Numbered from the stretch's first letter, positions 3-40,306 are shown. The stretch is DNA of 64,000 bases from an uncultured Gammaproteobacteria bacterium (GCA_964418775.1 CAYQNA010000005.1:3066-67065); one strand, 5' to 3'. The notes: generated from the sequence alone by a model not told the origin. Numbers and translations are program-made.

Positions 3-995
3 ATGACATTTTCTGAATTACACGCAGTGGCAAAATATTTGGTGTCCCCAGGCAAGGGAATTTTGGCGTCTGACGAGAGTGTGCATACGCTTGAAAAACA
101 TTTTGATGAGCATGGGATTGAGAAAAGTGATGAGAATCGTCGCGCGTATCGCGAATTGCTATTTACTGCGCCAGGCGCGAATGAATATATTAGTGGTGCG
201 ATCTTATTTGATGAAACAATTCAACAAAAAACCGCGGCTGGCGAGTGGTTTGTGGAGGTTTTGCGCGCGCAGGGAATTGTGCCGGGAATTAAAGTTGATT
301 TGGGTACTGAGCCGTTGGGGACGACCCCCGGAGAAATGACGACCAAGGGAATTGAAGGGCTCGCGCCGCGTTTGGCTGAATATTTTGGTATGGGTGCCCA
401 ATTTGCCAAGTGGCGCGCCGTGTTTACAATTTCCGACGCAACACCAAGTGAAGTGGCGATTGAAAATAATGTGACCTTGCTCGCTGAGTATGCGCGTTTG
501 TGCCAGGCTGCGGGTTTGGTGCCAATTGTGGAGCCCGAGGTGCTTATGGACGGCTCGCACTCAATTGAGCAGTGTTACGAGGCCTCGGTGCGCGTACAGA
601 CCGCTTTGTTTGCGGCGCTGGGGAAGGTGGGTGTGGATTTGAGGGCTATGTTGTTAAAGCCAAACATGATTGTGGCTGGGAGCGGTGTGGCCGAAGCTGC
701 GCCACGGGCGGTTGGCGCGTATACACTTAGTTGTTTGCAAACCACAGTCCCGAGCGCTGTGGCTGGGATTGTGTTTTTGTCTGGTGGGCAAAGTGACGAA
801 ACCGCGGTGGCGAATTTGCGGGCGATTGCGACCGAGGGTGCCAATGCTTCGTGGCCACTGACCTATTCATTTGGTCGCGCACTCCAAACCGCAGCCCTGG
901 CTACGTGGCAAGGCAAGCCCGAAAATATGGCGGCCGCTCAAAAAGCCTACCAGGAACAGGCAAAAAGGTGTGGTCTGGCTAGTCAAGGACTTTAA
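3..995 (+). CDS. fba: Fructose-bisphosphate aldolase, class I
   Basis: 330 aa; N-terminal GKGILASDES motif and overall class I (Schiff-base) aldolase layout; TAA stop at 993-995. Confidence 0.85.
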   Translation: MTFSELHAVAKYLVSPGKGILASDESVHTLEKHFDEHGIEKSDENRRAYRELLFTAPGANEYISGAILFDETIQQKTAAGEWFVEVLRAQGIVPGIKVDLGTEPLGTTPGEMTTKGIEGLAPRLAEYFGMGAQFAKWRAVFTISDATPSEVAIENNVTLLAEYARLCQAAGLVPIVEPEVLMDGSHSIEQCYEASVRVQTALFAALGKVGVDLRAMLLKPNMIVAGSGVAEAAPRAVGAYTLSCLQTTVPSAVAGIVFLSGGQSDETAVANLRAIATEGANASWPLTYSFGRALQTAALATWQGKPENMAAAQKAYQEQAKRCGLASQGL

Positions 996-1070: not shown

Positions 1071-1805
1071 ATGAAGATTGAATTGCTCAAGAAATTAGGA
1101 TTTTCTGACAAAACAGCCCTGGTGTATACCGGGCTGCTTCAGCTTGGGCCAAGTTCAGTGCGGGGATTGGCTGAGCACTGCGAATTGAACCGCGGCTCGG
1201 CCTACGAAGCCCTCAAATGGCTCGAAGAGCGGGGTTTGGTGAGTTTTTACGAGAAAGAGGCCAAGCAGCACTTTGTGGCTGCCCCACCTGCCCGTTTGTT
1301 GGCCCTGGCCAAAGAAGAGGTCGATGCAGTTCACGAGGCGCAGGCCGACCTTAAACGCGTCTTGCCCGAGCTGGAGGCGCTCTACAATCGCGGGGGCGAG
1401 CAGCCCGTGGCCCGCTATTTTAGCGAGACCGAACTGCCCGAGATTCTGAACGATATTTTGGTAAGTTGCGCCGCTGCTGGCGAAACCATGTACCGCGTCT
1501 ATTCCACCGAAGGTATTCGCGACCGTCTCTATGCCAATTTTCCAACCTTTAGTGACGTGCGCGTCGGCAAAGGTATTAATGTGCGTGTCATTGCATTGGG
1601 TGCTGGCGGCTCACTGCGCGGCCTCGACGAACGCAAGTGGCTCGCCGTGCCCCAAACCAAACCAACCTACATTATTTTGTATCCCGGCAAGGCCGCTTAC
1701 ATTTCACTTAACACTGCCGGACAGGCTGTGGGCGTCGTAATTGCGAACGACGGCATTGCAGCGACGCAAATCGCGTTGTTTGACGCGCTGTGGCAAACCT
1801 TATGA
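1071..1805 (+). CDS. TrmB-family sugar-responsive transcriptional regulator
   Basis: 244 aa; N-terminal winged-HTH (LGFSDKTALVYTGLLQLGPSSVRGLAEHCELNRGSAYEALKWLEERGLV) typical of TrmB family, C-terminal sensor-like domain. Confidence 0.7.
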   Translation: MKIELLKKLGFSDKTALVYTGLLQLGPSSVRGLAEHCELNRGSAYEALKWLEERGLVSFYEKEAKQHFVAAPPARLLALAKEEVDAVHEAQADLKRVLPELEALYNRGGEQPVARYFSETELPEILNDILVSCAAAGETMYRVYSTEGIRDRLYANFPTFSDVRVGKGINVRVIALGAGGSLRGLDERKWLAVPQTKPTYIILYPGKAAYISLNTAGQAVGVVIANDGIAATQIALFDALWQTL

Positions 1806-2449
1806 AACATTTCTCCCACTGCTTAATTGATTTTGACAGCACGTTATACGATACGCACCTATTTGTAAATGGTTTAAAAGAGGTTTTATTATCGGCCGGC
1901 GTGACCGAAAAAGATTATCACGAGACCATGGACGCAACAAAACATGGACACGATGGACGTACATTTCAATATTCTTTTGCGGCGCACTTAGATAATTTAC
2001 GTCAGCGGGGCTACGATTTGCCCGAAGGTGTGGAGACTCAAATGCAAGCAGAATTATTGATTAACCGGGTAGCCGCTGGGGCCGTCGAACTAATTAGTAC
2101 GCTCAGAGAAACCTGTGACCACGTGTTTATTCTCTCGGCTGGTGATCAAGAATTTCAAATGGCTAAGCTGAATGTTTCTGGATTATTACCATTGGTTGAA
2201 GAAGTTATCATTGTGGCTACCAGTACGGAAAAATTAGAAATAGTTGAAAAATTAAAGCCAAGTGAAAATAAAATTTTATTTATTAACGATGAAATTCACC
2301 AAAATAACGAGGTTGCGGCTCATTACCCACAAGTAGCGGTGGTTGGCAGAAAGCACCCAGTGCGTCATAATGAAAGTCTGGTCGGCGATGTTCCTTATTT
2401 TGCCACAATCCCTGAAATACAAGATTTTATAACCAAACAATATGTCTAA
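1790..2449 (+). CDS. HAD-superfamily hydrolase
   Basis: 219 aa; HAD motif I IDFDSTL near N-terminus; otherwise uncharacterised. Confidence 0.55.
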   Translation: MANLMKHFSHCLIDFDSTLYDTHLFVNGLKEVLLSAGVTEKDYHETMDATKHGHDGRTFQYSFAAHLDNLRQRGYDLPEGVETQMQAELLINRVAAGAVELISTLRETCDHVFILSAGDQEFQMAKLNVSGLLPLVEEVIIVATSTEKLEIVEKLKPSENKILFINDEIHQNNEVAAHYPQVAVVGRKHPVRHNESLVGDVPYFATIPEIQDFITKQYV

Positions 2450-3197
2450 TCTCACTCCTAATGTTCGCGCGGTAATTTTAGCCGCTGGCATGGGTAAGCG
2501 CATGAATAGCACCATGCTTAAAGTCATGCACGAGGTGCATGGTCGCCCGATGATTGATTATGTCGTTAGTACAGTTGAAAAAGCGGGCTTGGCTAAACCA
2601 GTGGTGGTGGTGTGTGATACTGATCCCGCTGTACAAGATTTTCTTGGCGACCGTGCGCAGTATGTGGTACAAAAAAAGCGCTTGGGGACTGGGCATGCGG
2701 TTTCAATGGCTGAGCCAGAACTACGCAACAACGCCGAAAACATTGTGGTTTTGTATGGAGATATGCCATTTGTGACAGCCGATTCAGTGAAGCGTTTGGT
2801 GACGCGTCACCAGGAACGCAATAATACGTTAACCATGATGACGTTCACAGTGCCTGATTTCGATGAGTGGCGTTCGCCGTTTAATAGTTTTAGTCGCATT
2901 ATCCGCGGCACTGATGGTCATATTGCGCGCGATGTCCAATTCAAAGATGCTACACCGGCGGAATTAGAAATTAAAGAATTGAATCCGTGCGTGTATTGCT
3001 TTAAAAGCGAATGGCTGTGGGAAAATTTGAAAAATTTGAAAAATAATAATGTCCAGCAGGAGTATTATCTGACTGATTTAATTAGCGAAGCTATACACCA
3101 GGGGCAAAAGATTTCCTCAATTGAAATCGATCCAAAAGAAGCGATTGGAATTAATTCGCAGGCTGATTTGCAGTCAGTGCAAAATTTGGGCGTATGA
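2442..3197 (+). CDS. Sugar-1-phosphate nucleotidyltransferase, GlmU N-terminal-domain-like (no acetyltransferase domain)
   Basis: 251 aa; AVILAAGMGKRM resembles GlmU LAAGKGTRM pyrophosphorylase signature; length covers only the nucleotidyltransferase domain. Confidence 0.7.
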   Translation: MSNLTPNVRAVILAAGMGKRMNSTMLKVMHEVHGRPMIDYVVSTVEKAGLAKPVVVVCDTDPAVQDFLGDRAQYVVQKKRLGTGHAVSMAEPELRNNAENIVVLYGDMPFVTADSVKRLVTRHQERNNTLTMMTFTVPDFDEWRSPFNSFSRIIRGTDGHIARDVQFKDATPAELEIKELNPCVYCFKSEWLWENLKNLKNNNVQQEYYLTDLISEAIHQGQKISSIEIDPKEAIGINSQADLQSVQNLGV

Positions 3198-3832
3198 AAG
3201 CCGTGATTTTTGACATGGATGGTCTTTTGATTGACAGTGAAAAACACTGGATTGGACGTGATAAAGAAATGTGGGGTGCGCTGGGAATTGAGGCGACCGA
3301 GGAGTTTATGCAGAAACTAACGGGTTTAAATTTAAGAGATGGGTACGTGGTGGCGCAACAGTATAAGCCTGATTTAACATGGGATGCAATGATAGAGCAA
3401 AACAGTAAAGTCGCTACGGTTATTTATACCGAAATGACCGAACTGATGCCGGGTGTGATTGAATTACTGCAAAGAGTTAAGGATTCTAATTTGCGGATTG
3501 GATTGGCATCTTCGACATCATTAGATTGGATTAATATTGTTTTGCAGCGGTTTAATTTGGATCATTTTTTTGAAGTAAAGTTGTCGACTCATTCGATGAA
3601 CTTGCCAGGCAAACCTAAACCAGATGTGTATGTAGAGGCGATGAAGCAATTAGGAGTAAGTCCGCAAGACACAGTGGTGTTTGAAGATTCGATTCATGGT
3701 GTAACTGCGGCTAAGCACGCCGGCGCTTTTACGGTGGCAGTTCCTAATCCAGAATGGAATAAGGGTGATTATTCGATCGCGGATGTGATCCTAACGTCGC
3801 TGGCGGATTTTGATTTTTCTTTATTAGACTAG
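3194..3832 (+). CDS. HAD-IA phosphatase (beta-phosphoglucomutase-like)
   Basis: 212 aa; MKAVIFDMDGLLIDSE motif I, later DS and GxxAAKxAG motifs. Confidence 0.7.
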   Translation: MKAVIFDMDGLLIDSEKHWIGRDKEMWGALGIEATEEFMQKLTGLNLRDGYVVAQQYKPDLTWDAMIEQNSKVATVIYTEMTELMPGVIELLQRVKDSNLRIGLASSTSLDWINIVLQRFNLDHFFEVKLSTHSMNLPGKPKPDVYVEAMKQLGVSPQDTVVFEDSIHGVTAAKHAGAFTVAVPNPEWNKGDYSIADVILTSLADFDFSLLD

Positions 3833-3833
3833 T

Positions 3834-5666
3834 ATGTGCGGCATTATTGCATATGTGGGGAATGAGCAGGCGCTGCCGATTTTGGTACGGGGACTCCGCC
3901 GTTTGGAGTATCGCGGCTATGACAGTGCGGGTGTGGCTGTGGCCGAGCGCGGTGAATTGCAGCGCGTGCGGGCCGTTGGGAAAATTGATAATTTGTCCGC
4001 AGCTGTAAAAGAGGTGAATGTGACTGGTACGATTGGGATTGCGCATACGCGTTGGGCCACGCATGGCGGTGTGACTCAAGAAAATGCACACCCACACGCA
4101 GCTCTGGGCGGCAAGTTGATGATTGTTCACAACGGAATTATCGAGAATTACCGCGAATTGCGTCAGGCTTTGGAAAAAGAAAATCCAGCGCTTGAATTTA
4201 CGTCGCAGACCGATACCGAAGTGCTCGCGCATTTGATTGGCAAGCATTATCAGGGTGATTTGCGCATGGCGGTGGAAACCGCGCTTACGCATGTGCGGGG
4301 CACCTATGGTGTGGTCGCGATGCACGCGGACCATCCTGATCAATTGGTGGCGGCGCGGTTGGGAAGTCCGCTGGTGATTGGAATTAAAGATGGTGAATAC
4401 TTTTTGGCCAGTGACGCGACGCCGATTTTGGCTTACACCAACAAGGTGATTTTTTTGAACGATGGTGAGGTGGCCGATGTGCGCCGCAGTGGTTTGAATA
4501 TCTATACGATTCGCGACGAAAAAGTTGCCAAGCATGTGGAGGAAATTTCGTGGGACGAGACGCAGGCCGAAAAACAGGGCTTTCCACACTTCATGCTCAA
4601 GGAAATTTTTGACCAGCCCAATGTTTTGCAGGATGCAATTCGCGGCCGTTATAATTTGGAAGACGGAACCGCGCGTTTGGGTGGGCTCAACATGACCGAG
4701 GAGCAAATGCGCCGCGTGAATCGCGTGATATTTTTGGCGTGCGGCACAGCGTCATATGCGGGCCTGGTTGGAAAATATGCGTTTGAGCGTTTGGCTGGAA
4801 TTCCAGCCGAGGTTGAGGTAAGTAGTGAGTTCCGTTATCGCGATCCGGTAATTGACGAAAATACACTCGTGTTTGCAGTGTCACAATCAGGCGAAACTGC
4901 GGATACACTGGCAGCGGTACGCGAAGCCAAGCGTCGCGGGGCCTTTGTGCGCGGGATTGTAAATGCGATCGGCTCCACGATTGCGCGCGAAACCGATGGT
5001 GGTACATACATTCATGCTGGCCCAGAGCTGGCTGTGGCCTCGACCAAAGCCTACACTAACATGTCCGTGGTTATGATGTTGTACGCCCTGCAATTTGGGC
5101 GTTCGCGCCGCGTGTCAGTGGCCACAGGCCAGCGTTTGTTGCAAGCACTCGAGCAGGTGCCGCAAAAAATGAGTGAGATTTTGGCGCAGAGCGATACGAT
5201 CAAAACCATGGCCGAAGAATTAGTGAAATACAAAAATTGTTTTTTCTTGGGTCGGGGCATCAATTTCCCAATTGCACTCGAAGGTGCGTTAAAATTAAAA
5301 GAAATTTCGTACATTCACGCCGAGGCCTATCCAGGTGGCGAAATGAAGCATGGTCCAATCGCCTTGTTAGCGCCTGAATTTCCCGTTGTCGCCATCATGA
5401 CCAAGGATCAACTGTACGATAAAATGCGTAGCAACGTGGAGGAGGTTCGGGCGCGCAAAGCCCCGGTTTTTATGGTCGCCACGCATGGTGATGAATCAGC
5501 GCGCGAACTAGCCGAACACGTCATGTTTGTGCCCGAAACCATGGAGCTCTTGCAACCGCTCGTTACAACCTCGGCCCTGCAGCTCTTTGCGTATCACTGC
5601 GCCGTCGCTCTTGGCCGCGATGTTGATCGGCCGCGCAATTTAGCCAAGAGTGTAACCGTTGAATAA
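3834..5666 (+). CDS. glmS: Glutamine--fructose-6-phosphate aminotransferase
   Basis: 610 aa; N-terminal MCGIIAYVG (Ntn Cys), two SIS domains, C-terminal VE ending. Confidence 0.95.
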   Translation: MCGIIAYVGNEQALPILVRGLRRLEYRGYDSAGVAVAERGELQRVRAVGKIDNLSAAVKEVNVTGTIGIAHTRWATHGGVTQENAHPHAALGGKLMIVHNGIIENYRELRQALEKENPALEFTSQTDTEVLAHLIGKHYQGDLRMAVETALTHVRGTYGVVAMHADHPDQLVAARLGSPLVIGIKDGEYFLASDATPILAYTNKVIFLNDGEVADVRRSGLNIYTIRDEKVAKHVEEISWDETQAEKQGFPHFMLKEIFDQPNVLQDAIRGRYNLEDGTARLGGLNMTEEQMRRVNRVIFLACGTASYAGLVGKYAFERLAGIPAEVEVSSEFRYRDPVIDENTLVFAVSQSGETADTLAAVREAKRRGAFVRGIVNAIGSTIARETDGGTYIHAGPELAVASTKAYTNMSVVMMLYALQFGRSRRVSVATGQRLLQALEQVPQKMSEILAQSDTIKTMAEELVKYKNCFFLGRGINFPIALEGALKLKEISYIHAEAYPGGEMKHGPIALLAPEFPVVAIMTKDQLYDKMRSNVEEVRARKAPVFMVATHGDESARELAEHVMFVPETMELLQPLVTTSALQLFAYHCAVALGRDVDRPRNLAKSVTVE

Positions 5667-6639
5667 TATGAAAAAAATAGTTGTTATCGGCGGCGGGACC
5701 GGCACAGTGGCGGTGCTATCGGGCCTAAAACAATTCAATGATTATCAACTAAGCGTGATTGTAAGCATGACTGACGATGGTGGTAGCAATGCGGTCGTGC
5801 GTGATGAATTTGGCTTGTTGCCATTGTCTGACGTGCGCAAATCAATTATTGCGTTGGCCGAAAATGACAGCCAGTTGCTGCGCGAATTGTTTACGTATCG
5901 ATTTTCCAAGGGTGACGGACTGTCAGGCCACACGCTCGGTAACTTAATGATGATGGCAGCCGCAGATATTAGCGGCTCCGAGGAAACCGCGATTAAACGT
6001 TTATCAGTGCTGTTTAATGTTAAGGGACAAGTAATTCCCGTCACGCTTGAACAAACGCGTTTGGTGGCCGAGTACGCTTCGGGTGCACGGGTTGAGGGTG
6101 AGCATTTAATTGATGAACCAGAGGTAGATCCAGGACGCATTAAAAATTTATCACTTTCGGTTGCAGTCAACGCAAACCCCGCTGCACTCAAGGCGATTGC
6201 CGAAGCAGATGTGGTAATTATTGGCCCGGGTGACTTGTATACTAGTACGCTTGCTAACATTATTGTGCCTGGCGTTGCTGCCGCAATTCAGAATAGTCGT
6301 GCCCAGGTTATTTTTGTGAATAACTTAATGACCAAACGTGGTCAAACGCAGGGCATGAGTGCGCGGGATTTTGTGCAAGAGATCACTGCCTATGTTGGCC
6401 GCACGCCCGATGTGACTGTGCTCCACAATGGTGATTTTCCGGACGCAATTTTGCAAAAATATATGGTGCGGGGCGAGTATCCGATCGTCGATGATTTGGC
6501 CGCTAATCCTCACGTTGTGCGCACAGATGTCGCTAGCGATACTGAAACCAGGCCAGATTCGGGCGATACACTCGTGCGCAGTTTGATTCGCCATGATGCA
6601 AATAAATTGGCCGCCGCCCTTCGAAAAATTATCAATTAA
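5659..6639 (+). CDS. YvcK/CofD-like gluconeogenesis factor (UPF0052)
   Basis: 326 aa; KIVVIGGGTGTxxxLSGLK N-terminus characteristic of YvcK/CofD family. Confidence 0.8.
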   Translation: MNNMKKIVVIGGGTGTVAVLSGLKQFNDYQLSVIVSMTDDGGSNAVVRDEFGLLPLSDVRKSIIALAENDSQLLRELFTYRFSKGDGLSGHTLGNLMMMAAADISGSEETAIKRLSVLFNVKGQVIPVTLEQTRLVAEYASGARVEGEHLIDEPEVDPGRIKNLSLSVAVNANPAALKAIAEADVVIIGPGDLYTSTLANIIVPGVAAAIQNSRAQVIFVNNLMTKRGQTQGMSARDFVQEITAYVGRTPDVTVLHNGDFPDAILQKYMVRGEYPIVDDLAANPHVVRTDVASDTETRPDSGDTLVRSLIRHDANKLAAALRKIIN

Positions 6640-8327: not shown

Positions 8328-8431
8328 AGTAAACCTAGTCTAACACAGCCATGGGGCCATGCCAAATTGATTGACTTTTGGGGGTTTAGGAGTACAATTA
8401 ATCCATAAAAAGCCAACAAAAACGCCATAAT

Positions 8432-8764
8432 ATGGAAATAACCACACACACTAAAACTAGCCAGGCCGTCCGTTTGGCAGCCCAGGTCAACGGGCAAGAG
8501 GTTGGTCATGTGTATTTATACCTCATTTACAATGACTTGCATCAGGCACCGTATGGTTTATTCGAGGATATTCAAGTGAACGAAGATGTGCGTGGCCAAG
8601 GAACAGGCGGGCAGTTGGTGCAGGCCCTAATTGCCGAGGCTAAAAAACAGGGCTGTTATAAAATCGTAGCCAATTCGCGCTCCACTCGTCCCGAAATTCA
8701 CGCCTGGTACGAGCGGCTTGGGTTTGCCGAATATGGCAAGGAATTTAGAATGAATTTGGCTTAA
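8432..8764 (+). CDS. GNAT-family N-acetyltransferase
   Basis: 110 aa; acetyl-CoA motif A VRGQGTGGQLV. Confidence 0.75.
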   Translation: MEITTHTKTSQAVRLAAQVNGQEVGHVYLYLIYNDLHQAPYGLFEDIQVNEDVRGQGTGGQLVQALIAEAKKQGCYKIVANSRSTRPEIHAWYERLGFAEYGKEFRMNLA

Positions 8765-11438: not shown

Positions 11439-12047
11439 ATGGAATTCAATTTTCGTAAAGAGAAATTCGTTAGAATTATTGGCATTGCTTCGTTGATTTA
11501 TTGCGCATTAATGCTCCTGGCTATTGCCTGGACTTGGTATGGTCCAATTCCTGGTACGAGGTTTGAGGCAGTGGTGGAAACAAATAGCAGGGGGACATTT
11601 AGTTTACGACATAATCGCTATTTTTTATCACCAGATTTTGTTAAGGCTGGCCTGGCAATTCCAGTAAGAAATTTGCCACCTAGTTTGGGTCAGTCAGGAA
11701 TACGAGTAGAATGTCCGTACCGTGTACTTGAACGCGATAAGTATCAAGCGACTGTTTTGGATGGGGCAGACTGTACGGCAATTGAGCCTAGAGACACGGC
11801 GACTACAAAAATTGAAGCAGTGCGCACTTTGCCAATGGTACAAGAGTTTATAAAAGATGTGGAAGAGGCTAAAAATGGCCGTCGTGTCAGCTTTAGAATC
11901 GAAGATGCGGAATTGGTAAAGGATGAGGTGGCGGTTGTTTCGGAAACGGATGACACCAAAGAAACAGTCTGGCGCCGGTTTTTGGTTCAAGGGCAAACAA
12001 TCACCGTGGAAAATCCTTTGACTGGCGAATTTGAGCCGTTACCATAA
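11439..12047 (+). CDS. Hypothetical membrane-anchored protein
   Basis: 202 aa; single N-terminal TM helix, no recognisable motif. Confidence 0.4.
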   Translation: MEFNFRKEKFVRIIGIASLIYCALMLLAIAWTWYGPIPGTRFEAVVETNSRGTFSLRHNRYFLSPDFVKAGLAIPVRNLPPSLGQSGIRVECPYRVLERDKYQATVLDGADCTAIEPRDTATTKIEAVRTLPMVQEFIKDVEEAKNGRRVSFRIEDAELVKDEVAVVSETDDTKETVWRRFLVQGQTITVENPLTGEFEPLP

Positions 12048-12405
12048 CTATATGTCCGAATTTTTTTTACCACACGCAGAGATGGAAAAAAATTTAGAAC
12101 CCCCTTTGGTTGATCGGGTGGTGGGAAGCCTAAGTAGTACTCTGAAAAGTATTTTTTTAGAAAATATTAATGGACACCAGCTTAAAAAAATTTTAGCCGA
12201 ACGACTGGATTTGAATGCCCTAAAAAAGTATGTCGAACGTGCCGATGTTGAGTCTAGTGTACTCCGTGCTGAGACGGAACAGATAAGGGCAGAGGTACTA
12301 CAACACCTGCAGTCTTTTTTGGAAATCGAAGTGGAACATGCGCCAAATACGGCTAAACGTGGGTATTGGCTCTCGCGCCTGAATACAGTAAAAAATTTAT
12401 TATGA
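12031..12405 (+). CDS. Hypothetical protein (helical, charged)
   Basis: 124 aa ORF, 17-nt overlap with upstream gene; no motif. Confidence 0.35.
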   Translation: MSRYHNYMSEFFLPHAEMEKNLEPPLVDRVVGSLSSTLKSIFLENINGHQLKKILAERLDLNALKKYVERADVESSVLRAETEQIRAEVLQHLQSFLEIEVEHAPNTAKRGYWLSRLNTVKNLL

Positions 12406-13559
12406 ACCTATACGAATTTGAAGGTAAACAATTGTTTGCTAAACATGGTTTGAAAATACCCCGCGGTGTAGTGGTGCGTCGTGGCGATGATGTGGCGGCG
12501 AAGTATACTGAATTGGGAGTCGCGGAGGTGGTTGTTAAGGCGCAGGTTTTGTCGGGCAAGCGCGGGAAAAATAATGGCATTAAATTTTGCAACTCAGTTG
12601 CATCGGTAGTGGAGGCCTGTGAGGAATTGTTTGGTAATGCAATTCGGGGTCAACAAGTGGCCGCGATTTTGATTGAAGAAAAGTTGCAAATTGCCGAGGA
12701 ACATTATGTTTCGGTGACGTATGATACCAATCGACGCCAGCCAATGTTGATTTATTCCAGTGCTGGTGGGGTGGATATTGAGGACGTGCCGGCCGAAAAA
12801 ATCATGCGCGTGGATTTGAATATTCGCAGTGACAAGTTACCCGAAGCCCAGGCGGGTTGGGATTTTGCACAAAAATTGTACGCTGTCTTTAAAGCCGAGG
12901 ATGCGCGTGTGGCCGAAATTAATCCACTCGTAAAAACTACGAGTGGGGAGTGGGTCGCGGCTGATGCCAAGATTGCGTTGGATGATGATGCGTTTTACCG
13001 CCACAAAGAATGGGAAACGCTCGAACCGCGCACTATGCTGGGTCGTGCGCCAACGGAGCGCGAAGTAGCGGTGAAAAAAATTGACGAAGGCGAGAATTAT
13101 TATCGTGGTACTGCTGGTAAATATATTGAAATGGATGGCGATATTGGTTTGATTTTAAATGGTGGTGGGGCCAGCATTGCGAACATGGACGCGTTGTTAG
13201 CTGCGGGTTTGCAGCCAGCGAATTATACAGAATATTCGGGCAATCCACCACGCGAAAAGGTGTACCAGTTGGCGAAAATTGTGTTGTCAAAACCAGGTTT
13301 GCGCGGGCTCTGGATGTGTGGTGTGGTGGCAAATTTTACCAACATCAAAGACACATTCATGGGCATTGTCGATGCGCTCGACGAAATCAAACCGCAGTAT
13401 CCAATTGTGGTGCGCCGCGATGGGCCGGAAAGTGCGGAGGCCAAACAATTAATTTTGGAGTGTGCGGAACGCAACCACTTGAATCTCAAGTGGTTTGGCA
13501 AAGAAACATCCATGGCTGACACGGCGCAAGTTTTGGCCGAAATGGTTAATGCCCAATAA
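12402..13559 (+). CDS. sucC: ADP-forming acyl-CoA synthetase beta subunit (SucC family; candidate citryl-CoA synthetase large subunit)
   Basis: ATG at 12402; MNLYEFEGKQLFAKHGLKIP ATP-grasp N-terminus identical in style to SucC. Confidence 0.8.
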   Translation: MNLYEFEGKQLFAKHGLKIPRGVVVRRGDDVAAKYTELGVAEVVVKAQVLSGKRGKNNGIKFCNSVASVVEACEELFGNAIRGQQVAAILIEEKLQIAEEHYVSVTYDTNRRQPMLIYSSAGGVDIEDVPAEKIMRVDLNIRSDKLPEAQAGWDFAQKLYAVFKAEDARVAEINPLVKTTSGEWVAADAKIALDDDAFYRHKEWETLEPRTMLGRAPTEREVAVKKIDEGENYYRGTAGKYIEMDGDIGLILNGGGASIANMDALLAAGLQPANYTEYSGNPPREKVYQLAKIVLSKPGLRGLWMCGVVANFTNIKDTFMGIVDALDEIKPQYPIVVRRDGPESAEAKQLILECAERNHLNLKWFGKETSMADTAQVLAEMVNAQ

Positions 13560-13561
13560 AT

Positions 13562-14443
13562 ATGAGTATTTTGATTACTAAAGAAACCAAAGTGTTGGTG
13601 CAGGGAATTACGGGTAAGGAGGGTTTGAAGGCTGCGAAAGCCATGAGTGATTATCACACCCAGGTTTTGTGCGGCGTAACTCCAGGCAAGGGCGGACAAA
13701 TGGCCGAGCAGTGGCCAGTGTTTAATTCGATTGGCGAAGCTCGCGCACAATTTCCCGAATTGAACGCAACGGCAATTTATGTACCCCCATTTGCGGCTAA
13801 AGCCGCGATTATGGAGGCGATTGACAATAATATTTCGCTCATTAGCGTGATTGTCGAGCGCATGCCAATTCAAGACACCGCGTATTGTGTGGCGGCTGCG
13901 CAAGAAAAAGGCTTGCGCATAATTGGCCCGAGTTCATTGGGTTTTATTGTGCCTGAGGTTGGACGCATGGGCGTGGTCGGTGGTCCGGCCGTGCGCGAAA
14001 TTTTCACCCCCGGGCACATTGGCATTGTGTCGCGCAGTGGTGGTATGACAAACGAGCTTTCGTGGCAAGTCCGCCAGGCCGGCCTGGGCCAAAGCGCGGC
14101 CGTGCATGTGGGCGGCGACCTGCTCATGGGCACCACGTATGCCGATGTGTTGCGCTTATACGAAGCTGACCCGGACACGCACGCGGTGATTATTTTTGGT
14201 GAGCATGGTGGCAGTTATGAATTTGAAATTGTTGACCTCATTGAACGCAAAGAATTCACCAAACCACTCGCCATTTACATTGGCGGCAAATTCGCCAATT
14301 CATTACCCGAAGGCACCAACATTGGACATGCTGGCGCCATTGTGGAGCGTGGCAAAGGCGCGGCCGAGAAAAAAGCTGCTCTCGCGGCCGTTGGCGTGCG
14401 TGTCGCCGAGCGGGTGGAGGATTTAGTTTCGCTCGTAAAATAA
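13562..14443 (+). CDS. sucD: Acyl-CoA synthetase alpha subunit (SucD family; candidate citryl-CoA synthetase small subunit)
   Basis: 293 aa; KVLVQGITGKEG...GVTPGKGGQ CoA-binding signature, phosphohistidine region GHAGA. Confidence 0.85.
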   Translation: MSILITKETKVLVQGITGKEGLKAAKAMSDYHTQVLCGVTPGKGGQMAEQWPVFNSIGEARAQFPELNATAIYVPPFAAKAAIMEAIDNNISLISVIVERMPIQDTAYCVAAAQEKGLRIIGPSSLGFIVPEVGRMGVVGGPAVREIFTPGHIGIVSRSGGMTNELSWQVRQAGLGQSAAVHVGGDLLMGTTYADVLRLYEADPDTHAVIIFGEHGGSYEFEIVDLIERKEFTKPLAIYIGGKFANSLPEGTNIGHAGAIVERGKGAAEKKAALAAVGVRVAERVEDLVSLVK

Positions 14444-14462
14444 TTGTGATAAGGTAGAACAT

Positions 14463-15206
14463 ATGAAATTCCAAACTGCTATTACCCACATTACGCCCGC
14501 GGGCGAACGAATTCGCGGCTATGAATTGGCCGAATTAGCCCAGCAAAACAGCTTTGCCAAGTCAATTTGGTTACTTTTGCGTGGTGAGTTACCAAACCAG
14601 GCCGAGTCCAAATTGTTCAGTGCCCTTTTAACCATGGCCATTGACCATGGTCCAGGCACTGCCTCTGGGCAGGTTACGCGCATCGCTGCCTCGGCCAAAA
14701 CTTCGATTCAGGCCGCCGTGGCAGCGGGTTTGTTGGCCATGGGTGAGCGCCATATAGCAGCTTTGGAAAACGCAGCTAAGTTTTTTCTCGAGAATAAAGA
14801 CTCAGATAATGTGGCTCAATTGGTTAAAGATTTAAAAGATAAAAAAGTCCGTGTGCCTGGCTTTGGTCACGCAGTGTTAACCGAAGATAAGCGCAGTATT
14901 TTTTTGTTAAGTCTGGCGCGCGAATTGGAATTGTACGGACCGCACGCCGCATTTGCCGAAAAAGTTGGCGTAGAATTAAATGCCATTTCCAGCAAACCGT
15001 TGCCGCTTAACATTGATGGTTCAATGGCTGCGATTTTACTTGACCTTGGGTTTGCGCCGCAGGCCCTAACTGGCGTATTTATTATTGCGCGTGTGCCAGG
15101 CTTGGTGGCGCAAGCGACCGAAGAAATGACGAATGATGTCGGCTTACGTCGTTTATCCGAAGACGAAATTGAATACACTGGCCCTGCTCCACGCAAGTTG
15201 GCTTAA
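14463..15206 (+). CDS. Citrate synthase-family small protein (citryl-CoA lyase-like)
   Basis: 247 aa; VPGFGHAVL matches citrate synthase PG(Y/F)GHAVL catalytic-His motif, DHGPGTASG resembles DHEGGNVS region; lacks the N-terminal half of full-length citrate synthase. Confidence 0.7.
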   Translation: MKFQTAITHITPAGERIRGYELAELAQQNSFAKSIWLLLRGELPNQAESKLFSALLTMAIDHGPGTASGQVTRIAASAKTSIQAAVAAGLLAMGERHIAALENAAKFFLENKDSDNVAQLVKDLKDKKVRVPGFGHAVLTEDKRSIFLLSLARELELYGPHAAFAEKVGVELNAISSKPLPLNIDGSMAAILLDLGFAPQALTGVFIIARVPGLVAQATEEMTNDVGLRRLSEDEIEYTGPAPRKLA

Positions 15207-15211
15207 TTGGT

Positions 15212-15691
15212 ATGCATATGACGGCCTTATTTGGTGGTTTAGCCGTGATTAGCGCAGTTTTAGCCGGCTTAATAACGCATGTTTCCCCACAACCAACTAC
15301 TCGGATCAAAGTCCCGACCGATTTTTGGATTCAGCGCGAAGAGAGTGGTGGTATGATGCCGAGCGGTAGTTTGGTGGTTATAACTCCGACCGAGATTCAG
15401 TACGAACGGTATGGGGCAGAAGATACCAAAGAGCGCTGGCAAGCCACCCCAACTCCAGCTGAAATCGAAAAACTCTACCAGGCTTTGGAAACCAAACAAT
15501 TTGCCACCATACAAACTTACACGGAAAAAGTGTATGACCGCGGTGGCATAACTATTTCGTACATGGCGAATGAACAAACAATTACCAAATCCGACAGCGG
15601 TCAATCTTTTGTGAAAAAGGGCGAAAGCACAACGCGCTTTTACGCTATCAACGATATTATCATGGATATTGTGGCCAGCCATGCGAAGTAA
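15212..15691 (+). CDS. Hypothetical secreted/membrane-anchored protein
   Basis: 159 aa; N-terminal hydrophobic segment. Confidence 0.4.
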   Translation: MHMTALFGGLAVISAVLAGLITHVSPQPTTRIKVPTDFWIQREESGGMMPSGSLVVITPTEIQYERYGAEDTKERWQATPTPAEIEKLYQALETKQFATIQTYTEKVYDRGGITISYMANEQTITKSDSGQSFVKKGESTTRFYAINDIIMDIVASHAK

Positions 15692-15692
15692 T

Positions 15693-16958
15693 ATGGAAGT
15701 GATTGTTGATTTGCACATTCACTCCAAGTATTCGCGCGCCTGTTCGTCTAACTTGGTGTTGCCAGTGATTGCTAAGACTTGTGAGCAGCGCGGAATTGGT
15801 CTGGTGGCGACTGGTGATTTTACCCATCCAGCCTGGTTTAAACATCTCACAGAAAATTTGCGTGAGACCGGCGAAGGTGTGTATCAATTGGCTGATGGTT
15901 CATCACCAACTCGGTTTATTATTGGCACCGAAGTGGCGTCAATCAAAAAACACAAAGACAAGTTGCGGCGCGTGCACCATTTGCTGTTTGCACCGAATTT
16001 GGCAGTGGCGGCGCAGTTCAACCAGAAATTAGTTGATCGTGGTTTAAACATTCGCGCTGATGGCCGGCCAATTCTTGGGCTCACCTCCAAAGAAATTTTG
16101 GAGCTTATGCTCGAAACTGACGAACAAATGTTGATGGTGCCGGCACATGCCTGGACACCGTGGTTTGGAATTTTTGGCTCAAAGGGTGGTTACAATACGC
16201 TCGAGGAAGCGTATGACGAACTCGCGCACCATGTTCGGGCCATCGAAACTGGCCTGTCCAGCGACCCACTTATGAATTGGCGCGTGCCCGCGGTTGACGG
16301 TCTTACGCTTATTTCCAATTCAGACGCACATAGCCCGCAGAAACTTGGACGCGAGGCTAATGTGTTTGCATTTGACCATGAATCCGACATTTCGTATTCG
16401 GAAATACGTCGTATTATTCAAACTGGCGATCGGGCTAAATTTTTGCGCACCATCGAATTTTATCCCGAAGAGGGTAAATATCATTACGACGGTCATGCGG
16501 CGTGCCAATTTTCGTGTCCACCAACTGAAACTAAAAAATATGGTGGTCTGTGTCCAAAGTGCGGTAAACCCTTGATTATCGGGGTGATGAATCGCACCGA
16601 AGAATTGTCGGCTCGCAGTGAAACCGAGGCGCGTGCGTTGGGTCGCATTCCGTTTCAAAGCGTGGTACCACTGCCCGAAATTATTGCCGATGTCCTTGGT
16701 GTTGGCGTGAGTAGCAAAAAAGTGGTAGCGCAATACAACGCGCTACTAGAATCCCTTGGATCTGAATTTGAAATTTTGTTAAAAATCCCGGTTGAAAAAA
16801 TTGCCAAAGCGAGCACGCTGGAAATTGCACGCGCAGTGGAGCGGATGCGTGATGGCAATATCACCATTACGCCTGGATATGATGGGGTTTTTGGCAAAGT
16901 GCACGTGTTTACCGACAACGAACAGCGTCGTAATCACCAAGAAACACTGGAGTTGTAA
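15693..16958 (+). CDS. PHP-domain nuclease, endonuclease Q-like
   Basis: N-terminal DLHIHSKYS PHP motif, further His/Asp ligands, internal C-x3-C...C-x2-C zinc finger (CQFSCPP...CPKCG), ~420 aa like archaeal/Bacillus EndoQ. Confidence 0.55.
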   Translation: MEVIVDLHIHSKYSRACSSNLVLPVIAKTCEQRGIGLVATGDFTHPAWFKHLTENLRETGEGVYQLADGSSPTRFIIGTEVASIKKHKDKLRRVHHLLFAPNLAVAAQFNQKLVDRGLNIRADGRPILGLTSKEILELMLETDEQMLMVPAHAWTPWFGIFGSKGGYNTLEEAYDELAHHVRAIETGLSSDPLMNWRVPAVDGLTLISNSDAHSPQKLGREANVFAFDHESDISYSEIRRIIQTGDRAKFLRTIEFYPEEGKYHYDGHAACQFSCPPTETKKYGGLCPKCGKPLIIGVMNRTEELSARSETEARALGRIPFQSVVPLPEIIADVLGVGVSSKKVVAQYNALLESLGSEFEILLKIPVEKIAKASTLEIARAVERMRDGNITITPGYDGVFGKVHVFTDNEQRRNHQETLEL

Positions 16959-16997: not shown

Positions 16998-17011
16998 ATG
17001 TCTAAGAAAAA

Positions 17012-17233
17012 TTATTTCTTAGCGGCGCGGCGAGCTGGGCGCTTTGCGCGCTTAGCTGCTGGACGCTTAGCTTTGCGAGCTGCTGGACGCTTTGGGGCGG
17101 TCTTGCGAGCTGGGCGCTTTGCGCGCTTAGCTGCTGGACGCTTTGCAGCGGTCTTGCGAGCTGGCTTTCTTTTGGCAACTGCCATAAGATTCAGATTAAT
17201 GATTGGCGCAAATTTGATGGGACCATGGTACAC
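17012..17233 (-). CDS. Histone H1-like Lys/Ala/Pro-rich DNA-binding protein
   Basis: 73 aa; tandem KRPAAKRAKRPARKTA-type repeats; terminator directly after stop; plus-strand overlapping ORF is Arg/Ala nonsense. Confidence 0.6.
   Translation of the reverse strand: MYHGPIKFAPIINLNLMAVAKRKPARKTAAKRPAAKRAKRPARKTAPKRPAARKAKRPAAKRAKRPARRAAKK
17031..17170. repeat. Tandem DNA repeats (~40-63 bp units) encoding the Lys/Ala repeats
   Basis: gctgggcgctttgcgcgcttagctgctggacgctt repeated with variants. Confidence 0.6.
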
Positions 17234-17424
17234 ACCAAATGGTATTGCGCGAGTTGGAGAGTTTACACGACAAGCATTGGCGTAAACATCTCAGGGCTGC
17301 GTGTAACACGCAGTGTTCGACCTTTGACGTGTAGTATATGTTATTTTGCACAAACTGAAAATAGTTTTTGTACAATCACCTGTGTATAACTTTTGTTTGC
17401 AAAAAATTTTTGCAATGTAATGTG

Positions 17425-18219: not shown

Positions 18220-18221
18220 AG

Positions 18222-18294
18222 TGGGCCAGGGTGGAATTGAACCACCGACCGCGTCGTTATAAGCGACGTGCTCTAACCGCTGAGCTACTGGCCC
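18222..18294 (-). tRNA. tRNA-Ile (anticodon UAU)
   Basis: GGGCCAGTAGCTCAGCGGTTAGAGC...anticodon loop CTTATAA...GGTCGGTGGTTCAATTCCACC CTGGCCC A; body strongly Ile-like. Confidence 0.8.
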
Positions 18295-23206: not shown

Positions 23207-24637
23207 TTATTGTTGCGTGGCAATGGTGCCGTAACATTTTACACGATCTTTTTGGTCTTCAAAAACCGGACAAAAACGAGCCGCGTCAATGTTTAAAATC
23301 AGGCCTTTTAGAATTTGTTCTTTGGTCATGTACGACTCTGGGCTGGCAGCTTTGTTGATTGGTACTGGAATATCATAATCATAGTGACCAAGTGCGCTAA
23401 ATTTACCCATGTCACCCAGGTCAATTGCGCCACCACTCGCTGTTCTGCCCACCACGTGGGCTTCATCCTCGACAACATCGTTTGGATTATTTAGGTCAAT
23501 ACGCAGTGCGAAACCTTTGAACCCGCCATGCTCAGAACATTGGTTCATGCCACTGTTCAGAGCTGCTTCGTCGACTGAAACGGTGTAGATTTGGTCTGCA
23601 TTTTTAATACTGGATTGGAGTGTGTAAGAACTGCTGACATCATCTAGTGTGCCATCCTGGCACACATAAAGCATACGGATACTACCTAAAACACTAGTGT
23701 CTGGAACCCAGGGGAATTCCCAGAAATCAGACACACCATCGGCCAACAAGTCCGCCACCCAACTGTCGGCGTTATTGACAGCCATGTCAACCAGGGATGA
23801 GTTTGTAATACGACCACCAATTTTACCTGGGAGACAGCTTTCTTCAGTTGATTCAAGTTTACGCAGACACACATTACCGGTTTGGCACGCGGTACCACGA
23901 CAACTTTGTCCGCCACCACTGCTAAACACGTACTGCTTGCCACATTCAGCATCAGCCGGATTAGTGGAAAAGGTGCCAGCTTTGAATTTAGCTGCTTTTG
24001 CTTCTGAAGAAATTTTTTCATTACCGCCGCCAATGTATTCAACTTTGTCTGATTCCTCTAAAACCGAACAATACTCAGCCATGCCTTGGCCGTTAATTAA
24101 CCAAATTTGGGGTAGACGGAAGTTAACCAAGTATGGATTTACCGTGTTAAGTACAACATAGGATACGAGCAGTAGCACTAGACCGGCTAAGGCACCGGCA
24201 ATACGATTTTTGGCCGAGCTAATACTGTCGCTATTGCCACCGCTGGCGGCCCACTGAAAGCCGGCCACTACAAGCATTGCGGCCGCCAAGATACCTGCCA
24301 CCCAAATTACATAACGGTACATTGATTTAATGAACACACCAATATCGGAGAATTTGGTTTCACCACCAAAAGAAATTTTGGTTTCAGTTTGACCAGCCGG
24401 CAAACAAAAACCAACATCTTTTTTTTCCCATTTTAACCCACCGCACGCAACTTCAGTCTGATTGTCTTGTATAAACCCACCGTTAAGGTCTTTATCGGTC
24501 AAAGTATCGCCAGCCAGAATTTTCCGTTGCGTAATACAATCTTCCTTGACCCAACATTTTTGGTCAATTTGCGCGTGTGCAATAAATGGAAGAGCCAAAC
24601 CAGCCACGAGCAAGGTTGTCAGCAGAAAACGCTTCAT
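23207..24637 (-). CDS. Cys-rich secreted/membrane protein with central VirB2/TrbC-pilin-like two-helix hairpin
   Basis: 476 aa; signal peptide; segment YVIWVAGILAAAMLVVAGFQWAASGG...RIAGALAGLVLLLVSYVVLN resembles T4SS pilin hairpin; >20 Cys. Confidence 0.45.
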   Translation of the reverse strand: MKRFLLTTLLVAGLALPFIAHAQIDQKCWVKEDCITQRKILAGDTLTDKDLNGGFIQDNQTEVACGGLKWEKKDVGFCLPAGQTETKISFGGETKFSDIGVFIKSMYRYVIWVAGILAAAMLVVAGFQWAASGGNSDSISSAKNRIAGALAGLVLLLVSYVVLNTVNPYLVNFRLPQIWLINGQGMAEYCSVLEESDKVEYIGGGNEKISSEAKAAKFKAGTFSTNPADAECGKQYVFSSGGGQSCRGTACQTGNVCLRKLESTEESCLPGKIGGRITNSSLVDMAVNNADSWVADLLADGVSDFWEFPWVPDTSVLGSIRMLYVCQDGTLDDVSSSYTLQSSIKNADQIYTVSVDEAALNSGMNQCSEHGGFKGFALRIDLNNPNDVVEDEAHVVGRTASGGAIDLGDMGKFSALGHYDYDIPVPINKAASPESYMTKEQILKGLILNIDAARFCPVFEDQKDRVKCYGTIATQQ

Positions 24638-39293: not shown

Positions 39294-39337
39294 CGGTATT
39301 GCCCAGGCATGGGCCCCTGGTGTACACTAAGGGGACT

Positions 39338-40306
39338 ATGATGTCCGAAGCAATTGCTAATTTTTCGAAACAATTTTCGTTTGAGCCCGTGGTTGAGAAT
39401 GCTGGTGCACTGCGACCGTTTACGCGGGCGTTGATTTGTGGCATGGGTGGTTCGCATTTGGCCGCTGATTTGTTGCCAATTTTGACTCCTGGCCGTCGCG
39501 AGGTTGTGTATTCTGATTATGGTTTGCCTGTGCTGGGTGAGGATGACAGGGCCGAGACACTCGTGATTTTGTCATCATATTCTGGTAATACCGAAGAGGT
39601 GATTGAAGCGGCCGAACAAGCCAGAGCGCTTGGTTTGAATGTGGCCGTGATTGCGGTTGGTGGCACGTTGCTCCAAATGGCGAAAGATAATAACTGGCCA
39701 TATGTGGCGCTTCCAAACACAGGTGTGCAGCCGCGCTCGGCTTTGGGTTTGGCAGTGATTGCTTTGCTCGCGCTTTTGAATGAGACCGCGGCTTTGGCCG
39801 AAGTGCAATCATTTGTGAATTTTGATGGCACAGGTTTGCACGCCAAGGGTCAGGCTTTGGCCAAACGTTTGGCGGGTTTTGTACCCGTAATTTATGCTTC
39901 GCACCGTAATCAGGCTTTGGCCTATAATTGGAAAATTAAATTCAATGAAACTGGTAAAATTCCGGCCTTTTACAATGTCATTCCTGAACTGAATCACAAT
40001 GAAATGAATGGCTTTGACTATAATTCCCAGACGCGTGCGTTGTCCGAGAAATTTTGTTTTATTTTTTTACGCGATGCATCTGACCTCCCGATGAACCAAA
40101 AGCGGTTCGAGGTGCTGGCACGGTTATATGCGGATCGCGGTTTGCCAGTGGAAGTGATTGAAGTAAGTGGCGCAACACCAACGGAAAAAGTGTTTAGTAA
40201 CTTGCTCTTGGCTGACTGGACTGCGCTTAGTATTGCGGATAATAATGGCGCCGAGCCCGAGGCCGTGCCAATGGTCGAAGAGTTTAAAAAATTAATTCGC
40301 ATATGA
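39338..40306 (+). CDS. Bifunctional phosphoglucose/phosphomannose isomerase (SIS-domain, archaeal type)
   Basis: ORF track 39299 (TTG); ATG 39338; ICGMGGSHLAADL and ILSSYSGNTEE SIS motifs; ~320 aa. Confidence 0.75.
   Translation: MMSEAIANFSKQFSFEPVVENAGALRPFTRALICGMGGSHLAADLLPILTPGRREVVYSDYGLPVLGEDDRAETLVILSSYSGNTEEVIEAAEQARALGLNVAVIAVGGTLLQMAKDNNWPYVALPNTGVQPRSALGLAVIALLALLNETAALAEVQSFVNFDGTGLHAKGQALAKRLAGFVPVIYASHRNQALAYNWKIKFNETGKIPAFYNVIPELNHNEMNGFDYNSQTRALSEKFCFIFLRDASDLPMNQKRFEVLARLYADRGLPVEVIEVSGATPTEKVFSNLLLADWTALSIADNNGAEPEAVPMVEEFKKLIRI

Follow-up and report, generated by a model that had tools for sequence, protein, structure and literature searches.

A putative citryl-CoA synthetase/citryl-CoA lyase gene trio of Patescibacteria and its genomic setting

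Described systems for citrate cleavage

The closest described counterparts of the gene trio analysed here are the citryl-CoA synthetase (CCS; Protein Data Bank (PDB) entry 6HXQ) and the citryl-CoA lyase (CCL; 6HXP) of Hydrogenobacter thermophilus. The trio, denoted ccsA, ccsB and ccl in the following, is located in a stretch of 64,000 nucleotides (GCA_964418775.1, CAYQNA010000005.1:3066-67065; hereafter the window, with positions counted from its first nucleotide) deposited under the name of an uncultured Gammaproteobacteria bacterium. The H. thermophilus enzymes exhibit the same three-polypeptide layout, i.e. a large subunit, a small subunit and a separate lyase, and, for each of the three proteins, no solved relative is better or at most a few are. 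Common to both systems are the Citrate_bind domain, the phosphohistidine loop and indels characteristic of CcsB. In contrast, the subunits encoded by the window and its relatives from the Candidate Phyla Radiation (CPR) are shorter (385 versus 429 amino acids (aa) in CcsA, 293 versus 353 aa in CcsB), the ATP-grasp insertions and C-terminal extensions of the H. thermophilus proteins are not found in them, and the citrate loop reads ANFTN, as in ATP-citrate lyase (ACL), rather than ANNTR. The presumed hosts differ as well: the trio seems to belong to a non-autotrophic, small-genome CPR bacterium and lacks, unlike its H. thermophilus counterpart, the context of the reductive tricarboxylic acid (rTCA) cycle.

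Two-subunit ACL (AclB/AclA; Chlorobium limicola 6HXJ, Methanothrix 6HXI) has the same domain set and catalyses the same overall reaction. Its citrate-binding motifs GGGAS, EYSG, ANFT and RRGGP agree with those of the trio nearly letter for letter, and its CCL modules are the next-best structural matches of the lyase after 6HXP. However, AclA, a protein of ~600 aa, unites the small subunit with the lyase, whereas in the window and in ~70 related loci each of them has an open reading frame (ORF) of its own, and the window CcsA is sister to H. thermophilus CcsA rather than to AclB in a neighbour-joining (NJ) tree. Succinyl-CoA synthetase (SCS, encoded by sucCD) and citrate synthase (GltA) represent homologous superfamilies that employ the same phosphohistidine mechanism and, in the lyase, the same catalytic His/His/Asp and Arg residues. 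They differ from the trio in that its subunits score under the SucC and SucD cutoffs, its large subunit carries a C-terminal domain of another family, and its lyase is devoid of the first ~120 residues of citrate synthase; trees and a fold search likewise set SucCD and GltA apart. Eukaryotic ACLY is relevant as a functional analogy only: it is a single fused polypeptide of 1100 aa, unlike the trio, and the likeness that we infer concerns its physiological role, namely to provide citrate-derived acetyl-CoA, outside the TCA cycle, to acetylation and biosynthesis, which is also the role proposed here.

In our interpretation, the trio very probably constitutes a split ATP-dependent citrate cleavage system of the Hydrogenobacter type (CcsA and CcsB plus a separate Ccl) that would serve the anabolic supply of acetyl-CoA and oxaloacetate from scavenged citrate rather than the rTCA cycle. 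The sequence-only reading that preceded this analysis had already proposed a citryl-CoA synthetase/lyase module in place of a succinyl-CoA synthetase of the TCA cycle, a view upheld by the scores below the SucC and SucD cutoffs, the Citrate_bind domain, the trees and the match to CCL detailed below.

Predicted identity of the three proteins

All three ORFs were confirmed on the plus strand at the positions given in table 1. They are separated by gaps of 2 nt (ccsA/ccsB) and 19 nt (ccsB/ccl; the ccsB stop codon is TAA) and, being contiguous in the window, appear to form one operon. The initiation codon of ccsA is the ATG at 12402, which yields an N-terminus (MNLYEFEG...) like those of CcsA and SucC proteins, and the TTG at 12366 is an unlikely alternative start. 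The stop codon of a small upstream ORF overlaps this ATG, suggesting translational coupling of the two genes. The small ORF has no family match in Pfam and NCBIfam searches and is kept solely in the closest relatives; in two of their loci (L087 and L088), the 117-aa ORF recurs together with an identical 4-nt overlap. The matches of the trio proteins reach E-values of 1e-40 to 1e-70, which excludes chance similarity, and the GC content of the three genes (0.47-0.49) is close to that of the window (~0.48), hence base composition gives no hint that the trio was transferred recently. ORFs, Pfam domains and motifs all agree with the original description of the genes as adjacent and encoding an ATP-grasp beta subunit, a CoA-binding alpha subunit with a GHAGA loop and a 247-aa protein with the PGFGHAVL motif.

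The named NCBIfam models best matched by the first two proteins are SucC and SucD, and the names given to homologues of the large subunit in GenBank vary between ATP-grasp protein, hypothetical protein and SCS beta ('Succinyl-CoA synthetase, beta subunit' in some of them). The SucC, SucD and SCS names favour an alternative reading, in which an ordinary SucCD pair precedes a citrate synthase gene that is truncated or decaying. The large subunit speaks against it. With 249.3 bits CcsA stays under the SucC equivalog cutoff of 370, and it combines the Pfam domains ATP-grasp_2 (1.7e-41) and Citrate_bind (PF16114, 'ATP citrate lyase citrate-binding', 2.1e-25), with no Ligase_CoA domain detected in the Pfam search. 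Its best PDB match is the large subunit of H. thermophilus CCS (6hxq_B, 1.4e-64), the best SCS-beta chain following at 1.3e-47. This difference in score is due to the C-terminal domain, which on its own matches CCS at 1e-32, ACLs at 4e-18 and 1e-14, and SCS at 9e-14. CcsA bears the segments NGGGAS (residue 253), ANYTEYSGNPP (273), VVANFTNI (308) and VVRRDGPE (336), and the alignment places NGAGL, ANFLDxGGGA, IFGGIxR and VxRLxGT of SCS at these positions, the SCS motifs NGAGL, GGGA and IFGGIxR being missing from CcsA. The core motifs GGGAS, EYSG(NP), ANFT and RRxGP (at residues 253, 277, 310 and 338) are nearly invariant among CPR homologues, 59 of which were compared, and are not found in SCS; they correspond to Y307-S308-G309, N346-F347-T348 and R378-R379 of human ACLY. 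ACLY residues N346, F347, T348 and R378 line one pocket, and R379 (equivalent to R339 of CcsA), which is cited as the citrate-binding residue, has been mutated to obtain a 'citrate binding domain' mutant; literature searches on the citrate site of ACLY otherwise gave indirect support only. In ACLY crystal structures, the residues listed contact citrate. In an NJ tree (100 bootstraps), the window and CPR sequences group with H. thermophilus CcsA with 92% support, AclB joins next (85%), and three SCS-beta sequences are split off with 100% support. An assignment of CcsA to the large-subunit type of citryl-CoA synthetase (KEGG K15232) is therefore supported at the level of sequence.

The small subunit is the least diagnostic of the three proteins and is ambiguous by score alone. 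It contains the Pfam domains CoA_binding, Ligase_CoA and Succ_CoA_lig, the segment SRSGGMTNE at residue 157 and a GHAGA loop with the predicted phosphohistidine His256, the CoA-binding domain and both loops being present in SCS-alpha and ACL too. Its NCBIfam score remains below the SucD cutoff (283.9 versus 336), and it is 42-44% identical to both archaeal SCS-alpha and H. thermophilus CcsB. Two indels are common to the window protein and H. thermophilus CcsB and do not occur in SCS-alpha, namely GGxxxx before SRSGGMTNE and three residues before GHAGA. The NJ tree recovers a clade including H. thermophilus CcsB and leaving SCS-alpha outside (92%). It is because of these indels, the tree and the invariable place of the gene between ccsA and ccl that we consider the ccsB product a putative small subunit of citryl-CoA synthetase (KEGG K15233).

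The third protein matches the Pfam family Citrate_synt (6e-39) with only the C-terminal part of the profile covered, the alignment spanning positions ~122-363 of citrate synthase profiles with a length of 372 aa. The initial claim that it is shortened relative to citrate synthase therefore holds, except that the missing part amounts to about the N-terminal third and not to half of the protein. It passes the NCBIfam cutoff for citryl-CoA lyase (NF004869, 236.4 bits versus 212), scoring far under the cutoffs of the citrate synthase and methylcitrate synthase models. A PDB search retrieves H. thermophilus CCL (6hxp) end to end at 2.3e-51, the CCL module of Chlorobium ACL at 7e-23 and the best citrate synthase at 2.5e-19. 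An AF2 model built from 18 homologues (pLDDT 87.9, pTM 0.83) gives the same picture when used as a Foldseek query against the PDB: the top match is 6hxp (TM 0.90/0.87), the following 40 matches are without exception CCL modules, taken from ACL of bacteria, archaea and humans, and citrate synthases come after them with TM values of 0.6-0.7. The PGFGHAVL motif occupies residues 132-139; H136 within it and D185 align with H491 and D543 of ACL-A, which are diagnostic catalytic residues (PMC13147460), and H62, H97, R144, F206, R210 and R229/R230 match residues binding oxaloacetate or citrate in citrate synthase. The catalytic and oxaloacetate-binding residues, including H136 and D185, are invariant in the alignment of the 18 homologues (50-91% identity). 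Nearly all of the 623 homologues found at E<1e-10 are 238-257 aa long, and solved CCL proteins have 256-268 aa, so the length of the protein indicates a complete functional gene. These comparisons support its identification as a predicted citryl-CoA lyase of full length for the CCL family rather than a GltA fragment or pseudogene, an outcome that, together with a firm clustering of the subunits with canonical SCS, would have refuted the initial proposal.

With both synthetase subunits below the SucC/SucD cutoffs and set apart from SCS in the trees (at 100% and 92%), and with the lyase showing the length, the conserved residues and the confidently modelled fold of CCL, we regard the alternative of SucCD plus a citrate synthase fragment as largely refuted and give it hardly any weight. 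Several points nevertheless weigh against assigning the trio to the CCS/CCL family. The best PDB score of CcsB is to archaeal SCS-alpha (3.9e-68; 233 and 225 bits) and not to CcsB (7.4e-61, 209.5 bits), and the inner node of the CcsB tree receives a bootstrap value of 57% only. The trees are NJ trees with few references, and HMMER alignments of PDB chains were the source from which the reference sequences were transcribed. Finally, identity to the characterised H. thermophilus enzymes is moderate (36% for CcsA, 42% for CcsB and 43% for Ccl).

The homology, motifs, fold and conserved gene order are compatible with the following scheme, whose substrate and direction, as well as its physiological role, are predictions. 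By homology with SCS, ACL and CCS, ATP bound in the ATP-grasp domain of CcsA would phosphorylate His256 of CcsB, and the phosphoryl group would pass to citrate to form citryl phosphate. Citrate would be held in the C-terminal domain of CcsA by an ACL-type loop (N311-F312-T313) together with R338-R339 and Y278-S279-G280. CoA bound to CcsB would then attack citryl phosphate, producing citryl-CoA, from which Ccl would release acetyl-CoA and oxaloacetate in a retro-Claisen cleavage, with His136 and Asp185 as presumed catalytic residues and with H62, H97, R144, R210 and R229/230 binding the oxaloacetate/citrate moiety.

Distribution and prior recognition of the trio

A scan of relatives, restricted to one genome per species, returned 80 loci. 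The nearest relatives of the window come from metagenome-assembled genomes (MAGs) of Candidatus Magasanikbacteria, with Ccl identities of 92% and then 69-61%; Magasanikbacteria belong to the Patescibacteria/Parcubacteria group. It is on these relatives that the taxonomy of the host rests, and we accordingly consider it a Magasanikbacteria-like member of Patescibacteria (CPR), as judged from its genes. The title 'uncultured Gammaproteobacteria bacterium' is also borne by many further TPA_asm MAG records (L007, L009, L010, L012, L014-L016 and others) with gene content and synteny of Patescibacteria, and contigs labelled 'Udaeobacter' and 'Kapabacteria' (among them L044; proteins P0031 and P0160) show CPR synteny as well. 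Such labels suggest mislabelling or mis-binning of CPR-like contigs.

The trio also occurs in Uhrbacteria, Paceibacter, Minisyncoccota, Saccharibacteria and further Patescibacteria. According to tblastn searches, the order ccsA-ccsB-ccl is retained in ~70 loci, essentially all of those with enough flanking DNA and mostly from Magasanikbacteria, Uhrbacteria and other CPR lineages. One locus (L002) that looked like a case of a stand-alone ccl without ccsAB was rejected as such, since L088 shows ccsAB 11.8 kb upstream on the same contig. This close relative (L088 12070-21158, L002 1-9979; SRR25018351_22195; CcsA 92% and Ccl 79% identical to the window proteins) carries an 11.8 kb insertion between ccsAB and ccl with all three genes intact, the insertion containing giant ORFs of 2377 aa (with an ABC1-kinase-like domain) and 1462 aa (no domain match).

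The expectation that the trio would be unusual in a small-genome organism was not upheld: it is widespread in Patescibacteria, and annotation pipelines already name its products, many large subunits being called 'citryl-CoA synthetase large subunit' by IMG and the lyase 'citryl-CoA lyase' by PGAP. The identity of the enzymes is thus not new, and the trio is typical of the lineage and recognised at the level of annotation. When the literature was searched for accounts of what CCS/CCL or ACL does in CPR, passing mentions were all that came up. According to a 2022 preprint, sequences of CPR and DPANN that carry SCS or citrate synthase annotations are monophyletic with CCS or CCL, and a 2025 paper reports enrichment of aclAB in MAGs of Saccharimonadia.

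Ccl relatives at a greater distance (36-42% identity) belong to Planctomycetota/Phycisphaerae, Zixibacteria and Thermomicrobiales. A divergent version of the trio is present in six loci (L078, L079, L081-L083 and L086) from Planctomycetota/Phycisphaerae MAGs and one MAG labelled Eubacteriales; its CcsA is 28-33% identical to that of the window and has neither the ANFT nor the RRxGP motif. Downstream of this trio lie genes for a GNAT protein, an HD protein, a fused homoaconitase (TIGR00139, 733 versus a cutoff of 530) and an Iso_dh-family dehydrogenase of the isocitrate/isopropylmalate type, and the divergent trio may represent an uncharacterised variant of a (homo)citrate-related pathway. These loci are pertinent to another possible interpretation of the window trio, namely that it performs the same chemistry on a different hydroxy-acid (2-methylcitrate, homocitrate or citramalate), releasing propionyl-CoA or another keto-acid. 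The adjacency of the divergent trio to homoaconitase and an isocitrate/homoisocitrate-type dehydrogenase shows the architecture reused in another context, and the citrate synthase family includes 2-methylcitrate synthases with the same oxaloacetate-binding residues. Yet the citrate-pocket motifs track with gene context: CcsA of the window retains ANFT and RRxGP of the ACL citrate loop, both of which the Planctomycetota type has lost, and this strengthens the case for citrate as the substrate of the CPR type. The closest characterised relatives of all three proteins, moreover, use citrate or citryl-CoA, and we consider a substrate other than citrate improbable for the window trio.

Gene neighbourhood and proposed role

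In the window, the trio is part of a co-directional gene array whose first gene encodes a mini-GNAT acetyltransferase and which runs through ccl. A promoter/terminator scan, which does not amount to strong evidence, placed a promoter-like site before the GNAT gene and found no convincing plus-strand terminator within the array. Genes upstream include several with functions in amino-sugar metabolism (table 1), and much of this arrangement recurs in relatives (L003, L005, L088 and many others), in which genes for TrmB, HAD, the GlmU half, the beta-PGM-like HAD, GlmS, YvcK and GNAT, sometimes followed by those for an rRNA methyltransferase and RluA, precede the trio. The gene for the PHP/Zn-ribbon protein follows ccl in 34 loci out of 79 without any apparent metabolic connection to the trio, and its recurrence illustrates how conserved gene order is in these genomes.

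Table 1. Position and annotation of the trio and of other features of the window.
Feature	Position	Strand	Annotation and basis
ccsA-like	12402-13559	+	385 aa; ATP-grasp and ACL/CCS-type citrate-binding domain; predicted citryl-CoA synthetase large (beta-type) subunit
ccsB-like	13562-14443	+	293 aa; CoA-binding Rossmann domain, phosphohistidine loop; predicted citryl-CoA synthetase small (alpha-type) subunit
ccl-like	14463-15206	+	247 aa; citrate-synthase-like catalytic core without N-terminal region; predicted citryl-CoA lyase
small ORF	12031-12405	+	117-124 aa; own stop overlaps the ccsA start as ATGA
TrmB regulator	1071-1805	+	Pfam
HAD	1790-2449	+	Pfam
GlmU, uridylyltransferase half only	2442-3197	+	NCBIfam profile positions 2-233 of 447
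beta-PGM-like HAD	3194-3832	+	Pfam
GlmS	3834-5666	+	Pfam
YvcK/GlmR-type CofD protein	5659-6639	+	TIGR01826 (UDP-GlcNAc-binding YvcK), 266 versus cutoff 196
promoter-like site	8371-8398		promoter/terminator scan
mini-GNAT acetyl-CoA-dependent acetyltransferase	8432-8764	+	110 aa; Pfam Acetyltransf_1, 5.9e-13
PHP-domain and Zn-ribbon protein	15669-16958	+	429 aa; TIGR00375, 184 bits, below cutoff; MJ0043_C in precomputed Pfam tables
class I fructose-bisphosphate aldolase	3-995	+	
ORF opposite the basic repeat ORF	16998-17285	+	
basic repeat ORF	17012-17233	-	73 aa; K/R/A/P-rich; no family match
tRNA-Ile, anticodon UAU	18221-18294	-	ARAGORN; Rfam tRNA, 73 bits
surface protein candidate	23207-24637	-	476 aa; weak T4SS-pilin-like segment
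surface protein candidate	31379-32926	+	515 aa; teneurin-type EGF repeats (below cutoff)
bifunctional phosphoglucose/phosphomannose isomerase	39299-40306	+	archaeal type

Some other features of the window deserve a brief comment. The aldolase and the isomerase are typical of the 'archaeal-flavoured' glycolytic enzymes of CPR genomes. The highly basic repeat ORF contains KRPAAKRAKRPARKTAPKRPAARKAKRPAAKR and is mirrored by an ORF on the opposite strand, either of which may be the coding one; its product resembles histone H1-like or AlgP-like nucleoid proteins. Bacteria normally decode AUA by a lysidine-modified CAU tRNA, a genomic tRNA-Ile with the anticodon UAU being uncommon, and its occurrence here may mean that TilS is absent. 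The 476-aa and 515-aa proteins are probably located at the cell surface.

With respect to central metabolism, the only experimentally established role of CCS/CCL, established by Aoshima et al. (2004) as cited in other papers, is the citrate cleavage step of autotrophy via the rTCA cycle in Aquificaceae, and the same role could be envisaged for the trio. No other TCA or rTCA gene was found by Pfam among ~50 ORFs of the window or in the flanks of the CPR loci; specifically, genes for 2-oxoglutarate or pyruvate:ferredoxin oxidoreductase, fumarate reductase, aconitase and isocitrate dehydrogenase are missing from the window and from ~70 related CPR loci. This makes a carbon-fixing role unlikely, the more so as the hosts are small-genome Patescibacteria (related chromosomes have 1.2-1.3 Mb), and we deem participation in the rTCA cycle extremely improbable.

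The cleavage of citrate for biosynthesis agrees better with the genes that do accompany the trio. A recurrent feature is the incompleteness of GlmU, whose LbH acetyltransferase half is missing both in the window and in related loci (median 252 aa). In 41 CPR loci, the sequence ahead of ccsA extends for 2.5 kb or more; 18 of these have an acetyltransferase gene directly upstream of ccsA and 26 have one somewhere in the locus, while glmS is present in 24 and yvcK in 29. The PDB matches of the window GNAT are weak and mixed, several glucosamine-6-P N-acetyltransferases (GNA1-type) occurring among generic GNATs, with RimI matched weakly too. In Uhrbacteria loci (L042, L053 and L075), the GNAT position next to ccsA is occupied by a stand-alone LbH protein matching the archaeal-type GlmU acetyltransferase half (TIGR03992 positions 213-388, 1e-50), which we interpret as non-orthologous displacement of one acetyltransferase by the other. 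The Saccharibacteria locus has the order GlmS-ccsA-ccsB-ccl-GNAT, and Minisyncoccota-type loci are flanked by genes for glycosyltransferases and a DegT-type sugar aminotransferase. In some loci (L003 2277-4626; L042, L047 and L053), genes for a Tdh-like protein and Kbl (glycine C-acetyltransferase, NF005394, 580 versus a cutoff of 460) are found within the GlmS/YvcK/ccs cluster, this pair being a second potential source of acetyl-CoA. L003 additionally has a Liv-type ABC transporter after ccl. Six loci include a malic enzyme gene two to three genes downstream of the trio, a possible outlet for oxaloacetate or malate.

This setting suggests that the trio supplies acetyl-CoA for N-acetylation of amino sugars and, hence, for the cell envelope. 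In the scheme we envisage, citrate from the host or the environment would be cleaved to provide acetyl-CoA for the mini-GNAT or for the stand-alone LbH protein of the GlmU-C type, either of which would stand in for the acetyltransferase half missing from GlmU. That the Patescibacteria trio is a dedicated acetyl-CoA supply comparable to ACLY and genetically coupled to the synthesis of UDP-GlcNAc and cell-envelope amino sugars is an attractive but tentative idea, to which we attach somewhat less than even confidence. The swap of LbH for GNAT, the order GlmS-trio-GNAT and the insertion of Tdh/Kbl go beyond simple inheritance of gene order, and the conserved embedding of the trio in the amino-sugar cluster is the mildly novel element of our findings.

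The role of the trio in supplying acetyl-CoA from citrate has to be set against several less favourable observations. In the window, the GNAT gene lies 3.6 kb upstream of ccsA and does not adjoin it. Unrelated neighbours (encoding the rRNA methyltransferase, RluA, Gmk and the TIGR00375 protein) are as tightly conserved by the trio as the amino-sugar genes, so that the synteny must be partly inertia. The 64 kb window shows neither a citrate transporter nor an enzyme that consumes oxaloacetate. The energies reported for the cleavage direction, -5.9 +/- 3.9 kJ/mol for CCS and -2.1 +/- 3.9 kJ/mol for CCL (about -8 kJ/mol overall), place both steps near equilibrium, and the enzymes themselves therefore do not fix the direction. 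Run in reverse, the system would be a citrate synthase that conserves ATP (acetyl-CoA + oxaloacetate + ADP + Pi -> citrate + CoA + ATP), i.e. a means of substrate-level phosphorylation in a fermentative CPR cell, and CPR bacteria are thought to depend on substrate-level phosphorylation. Against this stands the gene content: genes that use citrate or make oxaloacetate were not seen in the window, nor are any conserved in the vicinity of the trio, and the genes that are conserved there, Tdh/Kbl of a few loci excepted, encode consumers and not producers of acetyl-CoA. Nothing in the gene context calls for the citrate-forming direction, which we judge clearly unlikely compared with citrate cleavage.

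CCS and CCL are usually taken as a marker of autotrophy via the rTCA cycle, and their wide occurrence in ultra-small CPR bacteria without other TCA genes nearby is relevant for the use of this marker. These organisms would mislead metagenomic surveys that count ccsA, ccsB, ccl or aclAB towards 'carbon fixation potential'. As a route of citrate cleavage, the trio would give CPR bacteria a simple path from citrate, an abundant host metabolite, to acetyl-CoA and oxaloacetate, and it bears on the question of where bacteria with such a minimal metabolism get the activated acetyl groups that go into their cell walls.

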